The notes below the pieces were generated by a model, which saw only the letters and a list, made by a program, of their open reading frames with translations, was not told the origin of the DNA and ran no database searches. From positions 1 to 10,497 of the forward strand of contig JBOFUV010000051.1 in NCBI GenBank assembly GCA_051652765.1: DNA of 10,497 nucleotides. Reading direction: 5' to 3'. Below are positions 336-10,497 of the stretch, piece by piece (within the stretch, counting starts at the first letter, position 1; each line of letters begins with the position of its first letter). Origin of the DNA: Microcoleaceae cyanobacterium (lineage in GTDB: Bacteria > Cyanobacteriota > Cyanobacteriia > Cyanobacteriales > Microcoleaceae). The position numbers were made by a program, and so were the translations under genes.

Positions 336-3300
336 ATGAATCAGAACGCAATGCCAATTAAACAGGGGCTCTACGATCCACAATTTGAGCATGATGCTTG
401 TGGGGTCGGTTTTATTGTGCAGATGAAGGGGGAAAAGTCCCATGAAATTGTAGAGCAGGCATTGACGATTCTTTTGAACCTTGATCATCGAGGTGCCTGT
501 GGTTGTGAGGCCAACACGGGGGACGGGGCCGGAATTTTGATCCAGATTCCTCACAAATTTCTGCGAAACGTTTCTGGACTCCCCTTGCCCCAGCCAGGGC
601 AATACGGCGTTGGCATGATTTACTGTTCTCCTGATGCAAATATCAGAGCCCAGAGCCGCAAAGCCTTTGAACAAGTCGTCACAGACGAAGGCCAAACTGT
701 TTTGGGATGGCGAGATGTTCCGACTGATCACGCTTCCCTGGGAGAAACGGCTAAAGCCAGTGAACCTTTTGTCCAACAAGTTTTCATTCAACGGAATCCC
801 GAATTAACTGACGAGCTAGCCTTTGAGCGCAAACTCTACGTGATTCGCAAGCGTTCTCACATGACAATTCGGAACTCCGTTGACTCTTATTGGTATCCCA
901 GCAGTCTTTCCTGCCGCACGATTGTCTATAAAGGGATGTTGATGCCGGTTCAAGTGGGAGAATACTATCCCGAACTGCATGATCCCAATTTAGAAAGTGC
1001 CCTAGCCATGGTGCATTCTCGCTTCAGCACCAATACTTTTCCTAGTTGGGAGCGATCGCACCCGTATCGCTACATTGCCCACAACGGCGAAATCAATACG
1101 ATGCGGGGCAATATTAACTGGATGAACGCTCGCCAAGCCCTATTTGAATCGGAACTATTTGGGGAGGATATTCACAAAATTCGGCCTGTGATCAATATCG
1201 ACGGCAGCGACTCGTTAATTTTCGACAATGCTTTAGAGTTGATGACCTTGGCAGGCCGTTCCTTGCCCCATGCCGTGATGATGATGATTCCTGAACCCTG
1301 GACGGCCCATGAATCGATGAGCCAGGAGAAAAAAGATTTCTACAAATACCACTCTTGTCTAATGGAACCCTGGGATGGCCCCGCCTCCATTGCCTTTACC
1401 GATGGCACAATGATTGGGGCCGTCTTAGATCGCAACGGCTTGCGCCCTTCCCGGTATTACGTTACCAAGGATGATTTGGTGATCATGGCCTCTGAAGCTG
1501 GGGTATTGCCTGTAGAACCTGAACGGGTGGCCTTGAAAGGTCGGTTGCAGCCGGGACGGATGTTCCTGGTCAATATGGAAGAAGGCCGAATCGTGGCTGA
1601 CGAAGAAATTAAAAACCAGATTGCAACTGAATATCCCTACAGAGAGTGGTTAACCCAGCACTATGTTGAGCTAGAGCAACTCCCGGATGTCCCCACCGAT
1701 TTACCGCAAACTCCTGAACCCCAGCCGTTCGCGGACAGTGAAACCTTACCCCCTTCCTTGATCCAGCGCCAGAGTGCCTTTGGCTATACCTTTGAAGAGT
1801 TGCGGATGTTGCTGGCTCCCATGGCCAAGAATGGCGTGGAAGCGGTCGGCTCTATGGGAACGGACACACCCTTAGCAGTTCTGTCTGATCGCCCTAAACT
1901 GCTCTACGACTACTTCCAACAGTTATTTGCCCAGGTCACAAACCCCCCGATTGACTCGATTCGGGAAGAGATTATTACCTCCCCGCTCACTACTCTTGGA
2001 GCCGAAAGAAACCTGCTCAAGCCGGAACCTGAAAGTTGCCAACTGATTGAGCTGAAAACTCCTATTCTCAGTAATGCCGAACTCGCCAAACTCAAGCAGG
2101 TTAACCAGGGCGGCTTCAAGTCCATTACCTTACCGATTCTGTTTGATCCTACCCAAGGGGTTCAGGGCTTGAAGCAGGCACTAGAGATTCTGTTTGGCCA
2201 AGTGGATCAGGCGATTCACGCAGGGGCTAGCATTATCATCCTGTCCGACCGCGAGATCAATCAAAGTTATGCCCCGATTCCGGCCCTACTAGCAACTGCT
2301 GGCCTGCATCATCACTTGATTCGGCAGGGGACTCGAACCCGTGTTGGGATCGTATTGGAATCGGGGGAACCCCGTGAAGTGCATCATTTTGCGGTCTTGA
2401 TCGGCTATGGTTGCTGCGCGATTAACCCTTACCTCGCCTTTGAAACCTTGGATGACATGATTCAGCAGGGTTCTTTAACGGAGATAGATCACAAAACGGC
2501 TTGCAAGAACTACATCAAAGCAGCCACCAAGGGCGTGATTAAAATTGCCTCTAAAATTGGCATTTCCACCCTACAAAGCTACCGAGGCGCACAAATTTTT
2601 GAGGCGATTGGTCTGAATCAAGCCGTTGTTGACCAGTACTTCACCTGGACAGCCTCTCGGATTGAGGGGGCAGATTTAGCCGTGATTACCCAGGAAGCGA
2701 TTCTGCGTCATCACCATGGCTTCCCAGATCGGGAGGTGAACGGTCACACCTTGGATGTGGGCGGTGAATATCAATGGCGCAAGGATGGGGAACGGCACCT
2801 ATTCAGCCCGGAAACGATTCACACTCTACAACAGGCCACCCGCAACGGCAATTACGACCTGTACAAAAAGTATGCTGCTTTAGTCAATGACCAAAGTAAG
2901 CATCACTTTACCCTGCGGGGGTTGCTGGATCTAAAATCCCGTGAACCTGTGTCACTGGAGGAGGTAGAGCCGATTGAATCCATTCTGAAACGATTCAAAA
3001 CCGGGGCCATGAGCTACGGGTCAATTTCCAAGGAAGCCCATGAATCCTTGGCGATCGCCATGAACCGGATTGGCGGCAAGTCCAACACCGGAGAAGGGGG
3101 CGAAGACCCAGAACGGTACACTTGGACAAATGAGCAGGGCGACTCAAAAAACAGCGCCATCAAACAAGTGGCATCGGGTCGGTTCGGAGTCACCAGTCTG
3201 TATCTATCAAAAGCCAAAGAACTGCAAATTAAAATGGCTCAGGGAGCAAAACCAGGGGAAGGCGGTCAGTTGCCGGGATTGAAGGTTTATCCCTGGATTG

Positions 3301-4946
3301 CTAAGGTGCGCCACTCTACTCCGGGGGTGGGCCTGATTTCTCCGCCGCCCCACCATGACATTTACTCAATTGAAGACCTAGCAGAGTTAATTCATGACCT
3401 GAAAAACGCGAACCGCGAAGCTCGGATTAACGTCAAGCTCGTCTCCGAAGTAGGAGTTGGAACCATTGCCGCTGGAGTTGCCAAGGCCCATGCCGATGTG
3501 ATTTTAATTTCTGGCTTTGATGGGGGTACGGGGGCCTCTCCCCAAACCTCAATCAAACACGCAGGATTGCCCTGGGAATTGGGACTGGCCGAAACTCATC
3601 AAACCCTGGTGCTGAACAACCTGCGATCGCGCGTTGTGGTAGAAACTGACGGTCAGATGAAAACAGGCCGGGATATTGTGATCGCCGCTCTCTTGGGGGC
3701 AGAAGAATTTGGGTTCTCCACTGCACCCCTCGTAACCCTGGGTTGTATCATGATGCGGGTCTGCCATCTGAATACCTGTCCTGCTGGGGTGGCCACTCAG
3801 AACCCGGAACTTCGCAAGAACTTCATTGGTGATCCCGAATACACGGTGAACTTCATGAAGTTCATCGCTCAGGATATTCGGGAAATCATGGCCAGTCTGG
3901 GCTTCCGTAGCTTTAACGAAATGATTGGCCGCACGGATCTGTTGGAGGCGAAGCAAGCTGTTGACCACTGGAAAGCTAAGGGGATTGACCTGTCAAAGCT
4001 GCTCTATCAACCGGAAGTTGGGCCAGAAGTTGGACGTTACTGTCAAATTCCCCAGGATCACGGGTTGGAGAAATCCCTGGACATGACGACCTTACTGAGT
4101 TTGTGCAAACCTGCAATTGAGCAGGGCGAGAAAGTGACTGCCACCTTGCCGATCAAGAATACTAACCGAGTCGTCGGCACAATTCTCGGCAATGAAATCA
4201 CCAAGCGTCATTGGCATGGGCTACCTGAAGACACGGTTCATCTGCATTTCCAGGGTAGTGCTGGCCAGAGTTTCGGAGCATTTGTCCCCAAGGGTGTGAC
4301 GTTAGAACTGGAAGGAGATGCCAATGACTACTTTGGCAAAGGATTAAGCGGCGGCAAGCTGATGGTCTACCCTTCAGCCCAATCTACTTTTGTCCCCGAA
4401 GATAACATCATCATTGGCAATGTTGCCTTCTACGGAGCCACTAATGGGGAAGCGTACATCAACGGCATAGCTGGAGAACGGTTCTGTGTGCGAAATTCTG
4501 GGGTTCAGACGGTAGTGGAATCCGTTGGCGATCATGGTTGCGAATATATGACCGGAGGCAAAGTGCTGATTCTCGGCCCCACGGGACGAAACTTTGCTGC
4601 CGGAATGAGTGGCGGTGTGGCTTATATTCTGGATGAGATGGGAGACTTTGCCAGCCGCTGCAATACCCAGATGGCGGACATTGAACCCCTAGATGAGGAA
4701 GATGTTGCAACTGTTCGGGAAATGGTGCAAAAGCACGTTGCCTATACTCGCAGCCCCAAGGGTCAAAGGCTGCTAGACACCTGGGATCAGGTTGTTTCTC
4801 AGTTTGTCAAGGTAATGCCACGGGATTACAAACGGGTGCTGCAAGCTTTAAAGGCTGCTTTGGCTTCTGGGTTAAGTGGGGACGAGGCATTAACGGCTGC
4901 GTTTGAAGCCAATGCCCGCGATGTGGCCCGGATTGGGGGCAGTTAA
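336..4946 (+). CDS. gltB: Glutamate synthase large subunit (GltB / NADH-GOGAT alpha-type), 1536 aa
   Basis: EHDA|CGVGF propeptide with N-terminal nucleophile Cys22 (class II glutamine amidotransferase), [48 protein letters not shown], [3Fe-4S] motif [14 protein letters not shown], and C-terminal GXGXG beta-helix. The N-terminus ([12 protein letters not shown]...HRGACGCE) resembles cyanobacterial GltB more than Fd-GOGAT GlsF; this subtype call is from recall. Confidence 0.95.
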
Positions 4947-4960
4947 CCAATAGAAAAATA

Positions 4961-5033
4961 GTAGGTTGGGAAGAATCAGCGAACCCCAACATTCCATTGG
5001 AATGTTGGGGTTCGCCAACTCAACACCACCGAC
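4961..5033. repeat. REP-doublet (REPIN-like) inverted repeat, possible gltB 3' hairpin
   Basis: Perfect 18-bp inverted repeat GCGAACCCCAACATTCCA-T-TGGAATGTTGGGGTTCGC (4979-5015). The 30-bp unit at 4961-4990 starts with GTAG and has an internal GTTGGG...CCCAAC palindrome. An inverted degenerate copy at 5004-5033 matches it at 22/30 positions. Confidence 0.7.
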
Positions 5034-5354
5034 TCAACTATTCATTGAGTGTTTATCCAGTGTTTATTCAGTAATGTGCCTTTGGAAAATCGAATTTAGC
5101 TTAAAAAGCCCGCTCCACTTTTATTCCAGCCAGATTGCAATCGGTAGTTGTTCTCTATCAGCCGTTGTATCTCAGAGGACCAACTCTCTTTCAGGAGTTT
5201 TGTAATAATTAATTGTGCCAGAATGCAAAGTGTGAATCCTGAGACTTCAGGAAGCCAATGTCAAGTGTTGAGGAATTGGTTGCGTCCTCCTTGGGAAGGT
5301 CTTACGGCTTTCTCAGTGATCTAAATCCCATAAATCATCAAGGACACTAATCCA

Positions 5355-6671
5355 ATGTTAGATAGCCCTAACTCTCAAACTCCCCATCACGTTGTTATTG
5401 TGGGTGGTGGTTTTGCTGGACTTCATGCCGCCAAGGATCTGGGTCGTGCTCCCGTGAAGGTGACATTAGTCGATAAGCGCAACTTTCATCTCTTTCAACC
5501 GTTACTGTATCAGGTTGCAACGGGCAGCTTATCCCCTGGAGATATTGCCTCCCCGATTCGCATGGTTTTAAATCGGAACAAAAATACTCAGGTCTTGATG
5601 GAAGAAGCGACTGGCTTTGCCCCGGATCAGAATCAATTGGTTCTGAAAGATCGGAGATTGACCTATGACACGTTGATTATTGCTGCAGGGGTGAGCCATC
5701 ACTACTTTGGGAATGAACATTGGGAACCCCTAGCCCCTGGTCTCAAAACAGTAGAAAATGCCCTAGACATTCGAACGCGGATTTTTGCAGCCTTTGAACA
5801 GGCCGAAAAAGAACCTGACCCCGAAAAACGACAAGCATTGTTGACCTTTGTGATTGTTGGAGCAGGCCCAACTGGGGTTGAACTGGCAGGGGCGTTGGCA
5901 GAGATTGCCTACCGCATTTTGCGGGAGGACTTCCGCTGCATTAATACTAGGGAAACTCGGATTTTGTTGTTGGAAGGGATGGATCGAGTCCTGCCGCCCT
6001 ATCCGCCTGAATTGTCGGTCAAAGCAGAAGCCGCCTTGGTCGCATTGGGGGTGATGGTACGAACGAAAACTATGGTGACTAATATCGAAAACGACGTTGT
6101 CACGGTTAAGTCGGGAGATCAAGTCGAACAGATTATAGCCAAGACGGTGATGTGGGCGGCTGGTGTCCAGGCATCTCCCTTGGGTAAAGCGATCGCGGAA
6201 CACACCGGCGTAGAGCTAGATCGATCGGGTCGTGTCATCGTTGAACCCGATTTGAGCGTCAAGCATCATCCGAATATTTTTGTGATTGGAGACTTGGCAA
6301 ATTTTCCCCATCAAGACGAGAGACCGTTGCCAGGAGTTGCCCCCGTGGCCATCCAACAGGGGGTTTATGTGGCCAAGCTGATCCAAAAGCGACTAAAAGC
6401 CCAAACCTTGCCCCCCTTCCACTACAAAGACTATGGCAACTTGGCAGTCATTGGCCGAAATCAAGCGGTGGTAAATTTAAGGTTTACTCAGTTTTCAGGG
6501 CCGCTGGCTTGGTTTGCTTGGGTATTTGTGCATCTTTTATTCATCATTGAGTTTGATAACAAGCTGCTAGTGCTGATTCAGTGGGGATGGCGATATTTCA
6601 CCGGGGAAGGCGGGGCGCGGCTGATTACCAATCAAGAAAAAGTAGAGGAAAAGTCACCCGTTCAAGTCTAG
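5355..6671 (+). CDS. ndh: Type II NADH:quinone oxidoreductase (NDH-2 family FAD-dependent oxidoreductase), 438 aa
   Basis: FAD-binding VVIVGGGFAG, HLFQPLLYQVATG, second Rossmann motif VIVGAGPTGVELAG, WAAGV, IGD, PGVAPVAIQQG and an amphipathic C-terminal membrane region. AAGGA RBS ~10 nt upstream. Confidence 0.9.
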   Translation: MLDSPNSQTPHHVVIVGGGFAGLHAAKDLGRAPVKVTLVDKRNFHLFQPLLYQVATGSLSPGDIASPIRMVLNRNKNTQVLMEEATGFAPDQNQLVLKDRRLTYDTLIIAAGVSHHYFGNEHWEPLAPGLKTVENALDIRTRIFAAFEQAEKEPDPEKRQALLTFVIVGAGPTGVELAGALAEIAYRILREDFRCINTRETRILLLEGMDRVLPPYPPELSVKAEAALVALGVMVRTKTMVTNIENDVVTVKSGDQVEQIIAKTVMWAAGVQASPLGKAIAEHTGVELDRSGRVIVEPDLSVKHHPNIFVIGDLANFPHQDERPLPGVAPVAIQQGVYVAKLIQKRLKAQTLPPFHYKDYGNLAVIGRNQAVVNLRFTQFSGPLAWFAWVFVHLLFIIEFDNKLLVLIQWGWRYFTGEGGARLITNQEKVEEKSPVQV

Positions 6672-6733: not shown

Positions 6734-9166
6734 ATGGTTACTAGCCAGCTTCTCGATCGACGCTATCAAATCATGGAAATCCTCGAGTCCACGGACATCG
6801 GGAAAACCTATTTAGCCAAGGATACTCGTCGTCCTGGAGATTCTCTCTGCTTTGTAAAGCATTTGCTCTTGGCTGCCGAGGAGCCTGAATTTGTCGAAAT
6901 TGTCCGCCGTCGCTTTCAACAGGAAGCCCAAACCCTAGAAAAGCTATCCGAACATGATCAAATTCCTCACCTGCTGGCTTATTTTGAGGAAAATAGAGAA
7001 TTTTATCTGGTGGAATCCTACGTTGAGGGTCAGTCCTTAGCCAATGAGATTCAACCTGGGCAGCCGTTGCCGGAACATCAACTGATTAAAATTCTGATTG
7101 AAGTTTTAGAGGTGTTGATTTTTGTCCACGGGCATGGGGTGATTCATCGGGATATTAAACCCAGCAATTTATCCCGCCGAAATTCAGATGGAAAATTAAT
7201 CCTGCTGGATTTTGGGGTAGTCAAAGAGATTAACCTGCATGAGAACTATAGTCCTCGCACCGCTAGGGTAGGAACCCTGGAATATATGCCTGTGGAACAG
7301 TTCGAAGGTCATCCTCAACTGAACAGTGATATCTACGCTTTGGGGATGATTGGAGTTCAGGCCCTAACGGGATTGCCAATTTATGAATTGCGCCGCTTAC
7401 GAGAAGGCAATCAATCGAATGGACGAGAAATTGCTTGGCGACATTTAGCCATTGTCAGTCAGGAGTTGGGCGATATTCTAGACAAAATGGTGCGCTATGA
7501 TCACCGCCAACGCTATCAGTCTGCTGGGGAAGTTTTGGCAGCGTTGAGACGGTTGAGCGATCGCCCCCAAACCACTGCAGCCAAACTAGAAGTGTATCGC
7601 AGTGAGGTTCGACGCTGCGCTGACCATCGCGGAGATATTTCTGTGGTGGGTCGAAAGATTCTAGATGAAATGCGCTTGAGTTTGGAGCTTGATCCAGAAG
7701 AAATTGAACCGATTGAAGATGAGATTTTAAACCCTTATCGGAAATATCATCAAAAAGGGGAACGGTACGAACAAGCCTTGGCTGCCGCAATTCGTCAGGA
7801 ATACCCCTTCAGCCCCGAAACTATTGAAGAGTTGAAGCGACTGCAACAAATTTTAGGCATTAGTGATGATGACGTTGCAGTGCTCGAACAACAGGTTTTA
7901 CCCAAATCGTTTTGGGACAAATTAGCGGAAAGTATTCCGGGGTTAAAGTCCAAGTCCTTAAAACGTTTACAGCCCCATCGAAGTTCTCCCACGGCTTACT
8001 TGCCCCGGAGAACTTCACCCAATCCCTGGATTTTAGTGGGAACCAGTTTGGCTGCTTTGTTAGCCCTGGGACTGGCAATTTTCGAGTTTCAAAGACGACA
8101 AGATCTACAGGTGACTCGACTGCAACAACAACAGCTTGATCAGCAAGCATTAAGTCGGATCAAACAAATTTCTGGCCGGGGAAGTTATGAACTTTGTATT
8201 AACGAAGCGACTAAAATTCCGGAAACCTCTAGTCAATTTGTTGAAGCCAAAAGTCTGTTACAGCAGTGTCAAGATGCTTTAAGCTGGAGAGTTCCTAAAG
8301 TTCAGGATTTTGCCCAGGTTCCCAGTGAAGTGAATGCGATCGCCTTTAGTCCCGATGGCAAATATTTGGCCAGTGGCAGCCAAGAAGGTTTGGTGAAAAT
8401 TTGGGATGCCGTAACAGGGGAGCTATTAGAAACCTTTGAAGGGGATTCATCGCCCATTTGGGCGGTCAATTTTAGCCCAGATGGACAAGAATTGGCGACA
8501 GGAAGTGACCTTTGGAGAATTCTAGAGTGGAACTTGGCGAACAAAGAATTGTTTGTGCCGTTAGAACATGCTGGGGCAATTTGGTCAGTAGATATTAGCC
8601 CTAATGAACAAACAATTGCCAGTGCCAGTAGTGATTTAACGGTGCGAGTTTGGGATCGACAAAGTGGGCTGGTTTTGTTTGATTTCCCGGTTCATACTGA
8701 TATCGTTTATGCCGTTGCTTTTACCCCCGATGGCACTCAATTAGTCAGTGGCTCCCAGGATCAAACGATTAAAATCATTAGCCTGGAAACGGGAGAGGTT
8801 CTCAAGAGTTTAGACGCGCATTCAGGGGGGGTTCGTACCTTGGCCGTTAGCCCCGATGGTCAAAAGATCGTGAGTGGAGGGTTCGACGATACGGTCAAAA
8901 TTTGGAGTCTAGAAACGGGCAAGTTGTTGCAGACATTGTCAGGACATTCTGGAGACGTTCTCTCCGTTGCTATTAGCCCCGATGGGCGCTCAGTTGCGAG
9001 TGGGAGTGCCGATCGAACGGTGAAAGTTTGGAGTCTAGAAACCGGTGAATTACTAAACACCCTGACTGGCCATACCAATGAAGTTGATACGGTTGCATTT
9101 AGCCCGGATGGAAGAGTTCTAGCGAGTGGCGGCAAAGATCGTGCAGTAAAGTTCTGGAAGCAATAA
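6734..9166 (+). CDS. Pkn2-type Ser/Thr protein kinase with transmembrane helix and C-terminal WD40 repeats, 810 aa
   Basis: Kinase motifs CFVK, HRDIKPSN, DFG, GTLEYMPVE and SDIYALG; hydrophobic WILVGTSLAALLALGLAIF; about seven WD40 repeats (e.g. GHSGDVLSVAISPDGRSVASGSADRTVKVW). Confidence 0.92.
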   Translation: MVTSQLLDRRYQIMEILESTDIGKTYLAKDTRRPGDSLCFVKHLLLAAEEPEFVEIVRRRFQQEAQTLEKLSEHDQIPHLLAYFEENREFYLVESYVEGQSLANEIQPGQPLPEHQLIKILIEVLEVLIFVHGHGVIHRDIKPSNLSRRNSDGKLILLDFGVVKEINLHENYSPRTARVGTLEYMPVEQFEGHPQLNSDIYALGMIGVQALTGLPIYELRRLREGNQSNGREIAWRHLAIVSQELGDILDKMVRYDHRQRYQSAGEVLAALRRLSDRPQTTAAKLEVYRSEVRRCADHRGDISVVGRKILDEMRLSLELDPEEIEPIEDEILNPYRKYHQKGERYEQALAAAIRQEYPFSPETIEELKRLQQILGISDDDVAVLEQQVLPKSFWDKLAESIPGLKSKSLKRLQPHRSSPTAYLPRRTSPNPWILVGTSLAALLALGLAIFEFQRRQDLQVTRLQQQQLDQQALSRIKQISGRGSYELCINEATKIPETSSQFVEAKSLLQQCQDALSWRVPKVQDFAQVPSEVNAIAFSPDGKYLASGSQEGLVKIWDAVTGELLETFEGDSSPIWAVNFSPDGQELATGSDLWRILEWNLANKELFVPLEHAGAIWSVDISPNEQTIASASSDLTVRVWDRQSGLVLFDFPVHTDIVYAVAFTPDGTQLVSGSQDQTIKIISLETGEVLKSLDAHSGGVRTLAVSPDGQKIVSGGFDDTVKIWSLETGKLLQTLSGHSGDVLSVAISPDGRSVASGSADRTVKVWSLETGELLNTLTGHTNEVDTVAFSPDGRVLASGGKDRAVKFWKQ

Positions 9167-9240
9167 ATTCTGCAGGAATAGTGCTTGAGCCGAATCGCAT
9201 CGCGCACCTGATCCAGCAGCTTTTTCGGGCGTTGTTCCAT
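9166..9240 (-). pseudogene. intI: Integron integrase N-terminal remnant (~22-25 codons)
   Basis: MEQRPKKLLDQVRDAIRLKHYS(CRI) matches the IntI N-terminal pattern KLLDQVR..IR.KHYS.RTE. Similarity ends at the kinase stop, and the rest of the 126-aa ORF is antisense to WD40 codons. It is oriented divergently from attI and the cassettes, as in canonical integrons. Confidence 0.85.
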
Positions 9241-9246
9241 TTGGGG

Positions 9247-9468
9247 TTTATGCAGAAAATTTCAAGGTAATCCTCCGAATAAATCGATGTTAGGCCGAAC
9301 ATTGCTGTGTTTCATCGGAGAATATACTGAAAATTTCAGGATAATCCTCAAATTTAGGATGTATACCCAGAAAGTTTCAGTATAATTTCAGCATCAGGGT
9401 AGATTATATGGAAAGTTTCAGGGTAATCATCCCAAAAGCGTTGGTTATGCAGAAAATTTCAACATAAT
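9247..9468. repeat. Five dyad-symmetric 25-bp direct repeats (NWTA-N4-GAAA-R-TTTC-A-N3-TAAT) in the intI-attI interval
   Basis: R1 9247-9271 TTTATGCAGAAAATTTCAAGGTAAT; R2 9321-9345 AATATACTGAAAATTTCAGGATAAT; R3 9362-9386 TATACCCAGAAAGTTTCAGTATAAT; R4 9403-9427 ATTATATGGAAAGTTTCAGGGTAAT; R5 9444-9468 GTTATGCAGAAAATTTCAACATAAT. Start-to-start spacing is 74, 41, 41, 41 bp. Confidence 0.9.
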
Positions 9469-9480
9469 AACTAGTTAGGC
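9462..9480 (+). mobile_element. attI: attI recombination simple site (crossover G9474|T9475)
   Basis: ACATAAT-AACTA-GTTAGGC: a degenerate inverse L box, 5-bp spacer and GTTRRRY R box, the same layout as attI1. GTTAGGC is the exact complement of the GCCTAAC R'' of the downstream attC. Confidence 0.8.
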
Positions 9481-10360
9481 AGAATTAAACTTAAGGAAAG
9501 TGAGAAATTAAAACTGTGACTGAAGATAAAGGCAAAAAGAGAGTTGCGCTTGTCACGGGTTCAACATCTGGGATTGGGATGGCGATTGCAAAGCGTCTTG
9601 CTGAAGAGGGATTTAATGTTGCTTTTCATTCCAGGTCTTCAGTACTAATTGGAGAGTCATTAGCGGAAGCACATCCAGGATCATCTTATTTTCAGGCTGA
9701 TTTGTCCGACCAGAGCCAGTCTCGTAATCTGATCGCCGAAGTATTGTCGCATCACGGTCGGTTGGATGTATTGGTCAATAATGCAGGTATTAGCGCCACG
9801 ATTCCACATACATCTCTTAAGGAAGCATCACCGGAGATCTGGCGGAGTTTGTATGAAGTCAATGTCATAGCACCTTGGACACTAATTTCAGAGGCTGAGA
9901 TTGCGCTACGCCAGTCATCAAGGAGTGAATGTCCTAGTTGTATTCTCAACATTAGCTCTCATGCAGGTATTCGCCCTAAAGGAGCTTCAATTCCTTACTC
10001 TGCTACCAAAGCTGCTCTGAATCACATGACAAAGCTACTTGCGATGAGTCTAGCACCACAGATTCGTGTGAATGCGATCGCGCCAGGTTTGGTTGACACC
10101 CCGATGAGCAAAGATTGGACAGCCGCACGAAAGCTCTGGGAAGAACGATCTCCGATGGGACGAGGAGCGCAACCAGAAGAGATAGCACAGATAGCTTTTA
10201 TGATTGTTTCAAGCCACTATCTTACGGGAGAAATTATAATTTCAGACGGAGGGCTAAATCTCACATAGTAAAAATCATGCCTAACAACCCCGTTGCACAC
10301 CGACCGAATCAAGCTGATCGGTGAGTCCGAAAAATTGCTGGCGGCGGGTGAACGGGAACG
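9475..10360 (+). mobile_element. Integron gene cassette 1 (886 bp, single SDR gene plus attC)
   Basis: Bounded by G|TTAGGC (9474) and G|TTAGAC (10360). The single ORF starts 41 bp into the cassette and attC begins 10 bp after its stop codon. Confidence 0.85.
9516..10268 (+). CDS. Classical short-chain dehydrogenase/reductase (SDR, FabG-like), 250 aa, cassette-borne
   Basis: GTG start; TGSTSGIG cofactor motif, DVLVNNAG, NISS, catalytic YSATK, RVNAIAPGLVDT and C-terminal YLTGE...DGG. Confidence 0.92.
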   Translation: MTEDKGKKRVALVTGSTSGIGMAIAKRLAEEGFNVAFHSRSSVLIGESLAEAHPGSSYFQADLSDQSQSRNLIAEVLSHHGRLDVLVNNAGISATIPHTSLKEASPEIWRSLYEVNVIAPWTLISEAEIALRQSSRSECPSCILNISSHAGIRPKGASIPYSATKAALNHMTKLLAMSLAPQIRVNAIAPGLVDTPMSKDWTAARKLWEERSPMGRGAQPEEIAQIAFMIVSSHYLTGEIIISDGGLNLT

Positions 10361-10366
10361 TTAGAC
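10279..10366 (+). mobile_element. attC: attC site (88 bp)
   Basis: R'' GCCTAAC 10279-10285, 5-bp spacer, L'' CGTTGCAC 10291-10298, then L' GTGAACG 10348-10354, 5-bp spacer, R' GTTAGAC 10360-10366. The arms pair as CGTT[G]CAC[A]CCG[A]CCG with CGGCGGGTGAACG, leaving three extrahelical bases (10295, 10299, 10303). Confidence 0.92.
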
Positions 10367-10384
10367 TTACTTCAGCGTTCAGAT

Positions 10385-10495
10385 TTAGAGATTCCTACAG
10401 AAATTTTCTAGTACTGGGACTGAGGCTCCTAAAATTTTGTCTATACCTAGCAGCAATACGGCTCCTCCAATTGCAACTATTGTGTAGTTCAATCT
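10385..10495 (-). CDS. Possible 3' end of a reverse-oriented gene in cassette 2 (partial, hydrophobic)
   Basis: Open frame from the window edge: RLNYTIVAIGGAVLLLGIDKILGASVPVLENFCRNL*. The stop at 10385-10387 is ~24 bp from the crossover. A second minus-strand frame is also open for 33 codons, so the frame is uncertain. Confidence 0.35.
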   Translation of the reverse strand, partial: RLNYTIVAIGGAVLLLGIDKILGASVPVLENFCRNL

Positions 10496-10497
10496 CT

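Follow-up and report, generated by a model that had tools for sequence, protein, structure and literature searches.

The DNA analysed here (the window) is the whole of contig JBOFUV010000051.1 (C51, 10,497 nucleotides), from the 5.04-Mb, 158-contig assembly of a Microcoleaceae cyanobacterium (GCA_051652765.1, genome G000). At its right-hand end lies a truncated integron, which consists of a 5' remnant, or stub, of the integrase gene intI, a divergent attI recombination site, one gene cassette closed by an attC site, and the start of a second cassette. Taken alone, this locus is an ordinary decayed integron. A preliminary description made from the sequence missed that the stub and attI of the locus, together termed the head, are one of 24 dispersed mosaic copies.

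The truncated integron of the window

The intI remnant, placed by sequence alignment, comprises 22 codons on the minus strand (9175-9240, within the segment 9174..9240) and lacks the remaining ~300, the catalytic domain among them. A 73-bp alignment matches its DNA, at 95% identity, with the beginning of a near-full-length intI in a congener (G002:C133), which itself scores 478 bits on TIGR02249, and the proposed minus-strand intI N-terminus is thereby upheld. The term 'decapitated', applied to the integrase at the outset, was right about the loss and wrong about its side, since the head of intI remains and the body is gone; the intact intI with a catalytic tyrosine-recombinase domain that stands beside attI in a complete integron is absent. 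A Pfam search with the stub alone, which is too short for the purpose, returned 0 families. Between the stop codon of the upstream kinase gene and the remnant lie 7 bp (9167..9173), recognised by an inverted-copy match: together with base 9166 they form an exact inverted copy of cassette bases 9479-9486, as would be expected for a random 8-mer 1.5% of the time. The junction is ambiguous, as these bases may alternatively be a mutated continuation of intI that starts at an internal G|TT. The 126-aa open reading frame (ORF) said to hide the remnant does exist in the ORF list (8860..9240, minus strand), reading from the stub into a frame opposite the WD40 repeats of the kinase gene. It matched no family. 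Opposite the WD40 gene of the congener the 3' part of this frame likewise runs without a stop, and the ORF is most likely a shadow frame rather than a gene.

The attI simple site (9461..9480, plus strand) is made up of an inverted box (9461-9468), a 5-bp spacer and the core GTTAGGC (9474-9480), with the crossover at G9474|T9475. It diverges from intI in the layout found upstream of intact cyanobacterial intI genes, in agreement with the preliminary description. Homology among the head copies stops at 9474-9480, and homology to cassette copies in other organisms starts at 9472-9474. A repeat search of the intI-attI spacer (9241..9473, plus strand) gave five 26-nt dyad repeats (9246, 9320, 9361, 9402 and 9443), mostly spaced 41 bp, which may be accessory IntI-binding sites and a promoter region. 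Dyad units ~41 bp apart run up to the start of intI both here (9246-9468) and upstream of intact cyanobacterial intI (loci L174, L262, L263, L269 and L273), possibly as an IntI-binding or autorepression array, and this series defines a cyanobacterial attI open to assay. No cyanobacterial LexA box was found, and an Rfam scan of 8500-10497 gave no match near the gathering score.

Cassette 1 (9475..10360, plus strand, 886 bp) is mobile, with copies in other contexts. As first described, it holds a single gene, which a family search assigned to the short-chain dehydrogenases/reductases (SDR; 250 aa, open frame, 9516..10268, plus strand); what we take to be the glycine-rich, NNAG and YxxxK motifs of that family are visible in the protein. 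The cassette is closed by an 88-bp attC (10279..10366, plus strand; crossover G10360|T10361) with the R''/R' and L''/L' pairs of the bottom-strand hairpin, and its R'' is fully complementary to the first cassette bases. The fold of the bottom strand has a z of -3.4, with no equally stable sequence among 200 shuffles. Against a covariance model trained on 28 attC from elsewhere in the genome, with the window attC left out, and not the model of IntegronFinder, the site scored 66 bits (E 2e-14); the runner-up within the window had an E of 0.66. The pairs of this model covary: 66 cells changed on both sides, vs 21 when shuffled and at most 20 when slid, for a structure derived from the same alignment. 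The SDR cassette also occurs on contigs of three of four unrelated sequencing runs, at 97-98% identity (18-29 differences), where homology begins at 9472-9474 behind different attI-like flanks. None of the runs checked contains the window locus itself (best word share 0.17). Homologues of the cassette were found in 17 of 400 other genomes, and the match starts at the crossover in four of the ten inspected.

The second cassette begins at 10361 (10361..10497, plus strand), as had been proposed, and continues on contig C132; the part in the window holds the 3' end of a 175-aa gene (10385-10497, minus strand) that is antisense and matches no known family. The end of C51 overlaps C132 by 139 bp, the same length as in 148 of 162 end-to-end overlaps in the assembly. 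The joined array has four attC and the start of a fifth cassette, bearing out the idea that the window holds the head of a chromosomal cassette array, and in all four complete cassettes R'' is complementary to the first bases. In order, the cassettes carry the SDR gene; the antisense 175-aa gene; a 271-aa gene with a 711-aa DNA methyltransferase gene; a 124-aa gene with a PIN toxin gene; and the start of cassette 5. Cassette 3 (G000:C132:1916-4863, L146; 3.1 kb) has a Pfam match for the methylase alone (N6_N4_Mtase, weak DUF1156) and none for the 271-aa protein; the two genes are likely a restriction-modification pair carried as one cassette. The right end of the array lies outside the assembled sequence.

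To the left of the integron stand host genes. The Ser/Thr kinase-WD40 gene (810 aa, 6734..9166, plus strand) flanks the element without belonging to it, and positions 336-6671 hold ordinary genes for a glutamate synthase large subunit (1536 aa) and a 438-aa FAD-dependent oxidoreductase, likely a type II NADH dehydrogenase.

A dispersed family of heads

A profile of the ~300-bp head found 24 loci in the genome, of which 18 have a stub, 20 the attI core, 19 an attC downstream and 15 a 22-bp tandem array at the left. The heads lie mostly among housekeeping genes, between unrelated host genes in all 14 loci inspected, and one 273-kb scaffold holds three stub-bearing heads; this is not the single, vertically inherited locus of a sedentary chromosomal integron. 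Nine full copies of the window type are 90-97% identical and a tenth is 80-85% identical. Congener G002 has both this type and a second type of attI (C22, C68), which is ~70% identical. The genome has 92 attC by nhmmer (partial ones counted) and 78 by covariance model (150 candidates scored), all of one host-typical profile with ~88-bp sites and 64% mean column identity (28 aligned). They form 38 groups.

Without exception the 18 intI remnants derive from the 5' part of the gene and span 12-117 codons; one additionally retains codons 65-103. None extends to the catalytic domain, and no 3' intI piece is present in the assembly. In twelve heads the break after codon 21 is identical to the base, and the 22-bp tandem array is fused on there; the left ends of the heads form a nested series of IS5 end, linker, array, intI and spacer. 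The window copy has its own break point, no 22-bp array and no insertion sequence (IS) end.

The twelve-copy junction raises the possibility that the heads were moved by transposition in trans, as non-autonomous IS5-ended units resembling MITEs (miniature transposable elements with inverted repeats), and decayed later. An IS5-family right end forms the exact outer boundary of linker and 22-bp array at C45, C67 and C101, with different flanks outside; a head follows that end at C45 and C67, and C101 ends in the array. The C50 array terminates on an IS5 left end, 11 of 12 IS5 ends lie within 3 kb of integron parts or the 22-bp array, and integrons flanked by MITEs or by integron mobilisation units (IMUs) are already known (PMC3575428). 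However, both IS ends with a target duplication were seen at no locus, the window copy falls outside the pattern, and the G002 heads have no 22-bp array in the 420 bp read to the left. Of the IS5 transposase only a fragment survives, and IS5 remnants are found within cassettes and in other places as well, as neutral space would lead one to expect. Transposition best fits the twelve-copy subfamily, and as an account of the family as a whole we consider it unlikely.

The 22-bp arrays occur at ~24 places in G000 (for example C67:15052-15583, C64:22261-22524 and C109:8293-8491) and at G002:C107:627-742. Each unit has a fixed 6-base start and 16 variable bases, with several unit types and up to ~25 units. 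The arrays are genus-restricted; 15 flank heads, and others lie near MITE-like mosaics or mosaics like repetitive extragenic palindromes. They may be protein-binding arrays or mobile minisatellites. Their being a general part of integrons was rejected, as the exact pattern occurs in only 2 of 61 genomes and the single array of G002 is not at a head.

IntI might also have moved its own head, if recombination at a GWT site (attG) inside intI excised a circle of stub and attI, with or without cassettes, that re-entered at an attC or attG. At G002:C63:2614-2903 (L030, L123) an attC is fused exactly through G|TT to intI at codon ~70, a join that records attC x attG recombination in nature, within intI itself. 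For three of the 24 heads, vs 0.44 expected, a same-strand attC precedes the head by no more than 2 kb, and attG insertion, with excision at nearby sites, has been shown in E. coli (10.1101/2022.09.11.507474). In the window the alignment of the stub to intI does stop at an internal G|TT of the reference, but the window reads A|TT there, with two mismatches among the following six bases. A clean attC G|TT join was seen in just one of 39 remnant junctions examined, many of them mapped with distant references, and a general attG origin of the intI breaks was rejected on that count. In intact cyanobacterial intI a GTTRRRY boundary was found in 7 of 32, not beyond chance (shuffle mean 3.4, max 10). 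This route is a rather improbable source of the family. Self-mobility of an integron as a cassette was also rejected, there being no conserved left boundary.

Some remnants and cassettes stand apart. At G000:C138:1706-3685 a 54-codon intI remnant lies ~70 bp upstream of an antisense 345-aa gene in a cassette of an upstream array, apparently taking the place of the attC of that cassette; the gene by its look resembles a DNA methylase. Large cassettes are found at G000:C50:1700-5900 (1331-aa protein) and C34:144051-147569 (383/124/619-aa operon), whose genes may be defence-like, judged on their first residues.

Missing integrase and shared cassettes

The preliminary description proposed an array either frozen or served by an integrase in trans, and suggested a search of the genome for an intact intI or the missing C-terminal part. 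Neither is in the assembly: no catalytic IntI was found by TIGR02249 (none over cut-off), tblastn or PF00589, among which searches seven other tyrosine recombinases appeared. The description holds to that extent, and service in trans can mean past or transient service only. The closest intI relatives by sequence, where named, are mostly cyanobacterial. A close intact donor was sought and rejected: besides that of G002 itself, the best matches among 80 metagenome and 80 genome loci (limited scans) were 75-78% identical.

An intact intI could nevertheless be missing from the assembly, because its smallest contigs are at least 1.6 kb and the C68 head begins at a contig end, its left side lying beyond. 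A resident copy, on an unbinned plasmid or an unassembled short contig, might then serve the heads now, with the heads being fragments of repeated whole-integron insertions or of tandem stacks. Near-identical cassettes in different arrays suggest recent activity, and a related intI is carried on a cyanobacterial plasmid. A stack is seen in a closed genome (G016:C1:4450000-4501000, L118-L121), where six intI units, two intact and four broken, lie in ~50 kb; several of its arrays share a terminal sequence, toxin-antitoxin genes stand between units, and it reads as a tandem duplication. Against a resident copy, none of 168 scaffold ends matches intI, the assembly is 99.97% complete by markers, and three near-closed genomes (G040, G047 and G218), picked because remnants or heads were evident, each have four to five scattered 5'-anchored remnants and no intact copy. 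We regard this alternative as distinctly unlikely.

Past action of an IntI is recorded in the cassettes. R'' is fully complementary to the first bases in 29 of 62 cassettes (mean 5.2, max 15 in 10,000 shuffles). Cassette 5 of the window array and the cassette that comes first after the C146 attI are 98.7% identical over 297 bp and share the G|TT join, with different left partners (attC here, attI at C146), and as this identity exceeds that between heads, the cassette likely moved after the heads diverged. The first cassettes of G000:C64 and G002:C177 are 89% identical behind different head types at different loci. The presence of the same cassettes in different arrays, with joins precisely at G|TT, means that an IntI served several loci. 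A gene-less cassette of ~210 bp is found in at least ten arrays at 77-98% identity (for example C82:9345-9560, C21:29823-30035 and C67:15875-16092) and was struck twice by IS5 insertion at one spot; it may be a promoter or small-RNA cassette.

The heads themselves are mosaic copies. In a four-gamete test 130 of 253 site pairs were incompatible, and the codon-21 junction is present on both attI types. Stub variation is concentrated at third codon positions (0.148 vs 0.074 and 0.037), which fits alleles drawn from working genes.

Relatives point to movement between species. Congener G002 has nine head loci and 18 attC, with one full-length intI broken by a single stop, and congener G001 has no attC and only traces of a head. 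The comparison of the locus in related strains, as first suggested, showed orthologues of the kinase gene in both congeners and no integron head behind either. Heads of G000 and G002 are up to 89-91% identical, the kinase gene 74% and most other flanking genes 70-77%, and this greater likeness of the heads points to transfer between species. More widely, an IntI match above the cut-off is present in 5 of 61 related genomes, G218 has 54 attC, and intI is intact at 30 of 38 selected loci from the genome and metagenome scans, mostly beside different genes. The wandering and decay of intI are general in cyanobacteria; amplification of a single head was seen in this genus alone.

From the dispersal of the heads, the 5'-only intI, the intact attI and attC, the G|TT joins, the shared cassettes, the mosaic heads and their likeness between species, we infer the route by which they spread. 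Our favoured reading, to which we give a probability of about 0.5, is that natural transformation and recombination brought the 24 related heads in and reshuffled them, and that the heads lost their integrase by deletion and were filled by an IntI now gone or transient. Incoming integron DNA would find its anchor in homologous sequence already present, whether a head, an attC or a shared cassette, and its intI side would be joined or trimmed illegitimately to give the nested series of left-hand breaks; the attI side would be retained for its role as anchor and for the cassette promoter that it likely carries. Loss of the integrase would be favoured by its cost, as integrases are costly and rapidly inactivated (PMC3510236), and attI would stay usable. 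Retained heads would be a substrate for any arriving IntI and a landing pad for array swaps by homologous recombination, and a single truncated version with the 22-bp array and an IS5 end fused to it would have been amplified to 12 copies. Transfer of cassettes and integrons by transformation, not solely dependent on integrase, is documented (PMC3410848), comEC and dprA are intact in G000, and the excess of heads behind a same-strand attC counts for this reading as well.

Several observations weigh against this reading. Competence genes do not prove competence, and G001 has them without integrons. An empty site was not definable, as synteny with both congeners was broken at all four loci tried. 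Recurrent mutation can partly cause four-gamete failures, and the contig-size limit and the C68 head bear on whether the integrase is truly gone. Five other cyanobacterial genomes also hold several remnants, with essentially one copy of any given head type, and the amplification may thus be a quirk of this genus; a head search of 301 genomes scored two candidates per genome and gives no copy counts. Conservation of the dyad repeats does not exceed that of spacer and stub (p = 0.21), which leaves selection on attI function unsupported. For a cassette promoter, the head has no sigma70 match vs 1.0 expected, and contigs from RNA runs belonged to other organisms.

A bolder extension of the favoured reading is a 'distributed integron', that is, a genome-wide, species-crossing family of ~20 non-autonomous attI landing pads that swap cassettes when an integrase passes. 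We put it forward tentatively, as possible rather than probable. If the heads still work, this integrase-less genome can capture cassettes for restriction-modification, toxin-antitoxin and metabolic functions at ~20 sites; if the extension holds, defence, toxin-antitoxin and metabolic cassettes would be swapped without the cost of owning an integrase, and many cyanobacterial arrays classed as integrase-less would be headed arrays misclassified by current tools.

Comparison with known integron systems

The nearest known category is that of clusters of attC sites with no integron integrase (CALINs) and single such sites (SALINs), which are short arrays without a recognisable integrase nearby, mobilisable by IntI in trans (Cury et al., 2016, PMC4889954; 10.1101/2022.09.11.507474). 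Integrase-based annotation would give these loci that label, and the window array qualifies as a CALIN with four attC over C51 and C132 through the 139-bp overlap; the window alone has one attC. The difference is that for 21 of the 38 attC groups here a head lies no more than 5.2 kb away. The pseudogene test usually applied to CALINs considers the integrase C-terminus only: the search by Cury et al. used an IntI C-terminal profile, found pseudogenes near 15 of 279 CALINs and did not cover unknown attI sites (PMC4889954). As such a profile cannot see 5' stubs, heads like these would have been missed, and since over half of the attC groups have one, the origin of CALINs becomes testable across cyanobacteria through attI and 5' stubs. 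The tables of the IntegronFinder papers may list cyanobacterial CALINs.

The chromosomal integrons of Xanthomonas are similar in that intI is truncated or deleted, arrays are kept and cassettes diversified before inactivation (10.1101/2025.06.18.660453). They descend, however, from one ancestral locus behind ilvD, whereas here 24 loci are dispersed, those checked share no position with a congener's, and heads have passed between species. Defective class 1 integrons flanked by MITEs or IMUs likewise tie an integrase-defective integron to non-autonomous IS-type ends (PMC3575428), but with paired flanking elements and, in the Acinetobacter cases, target duplications; here the IS5 end is one-sided and found at four loci, the window not among them, and inverted repeats on both sides with a target-site duplication were not seen, nor any such element to the left of the head in the window. 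Among intI genes, between about a third and 46% are inactive, and a fifth of carriers have more than one (PMC2426708, PMC3108266), and further background is given in PMC8618304 and PMC9668308. Within the accessible parts of the work on multi-intI genomes (Nemergut et al., 2008; Cambray et al., 2011), no match is described to 18 remnants with none intact, strict 5' retention and a 12-copy junction. A literature search, with most subscription papers and supplements outside its scope, found no amplified, dispersed family of attI plus stub and no paper on cyanobacterial integron architecture. All of the following had been described before: broken intI, genomes with several intI, service of CALINs in trans, and MITE-flanked integrons; what is new here is a genome with ~20 attI platforms and no integrase, whose cassettes have been exchanged among loci and between species.

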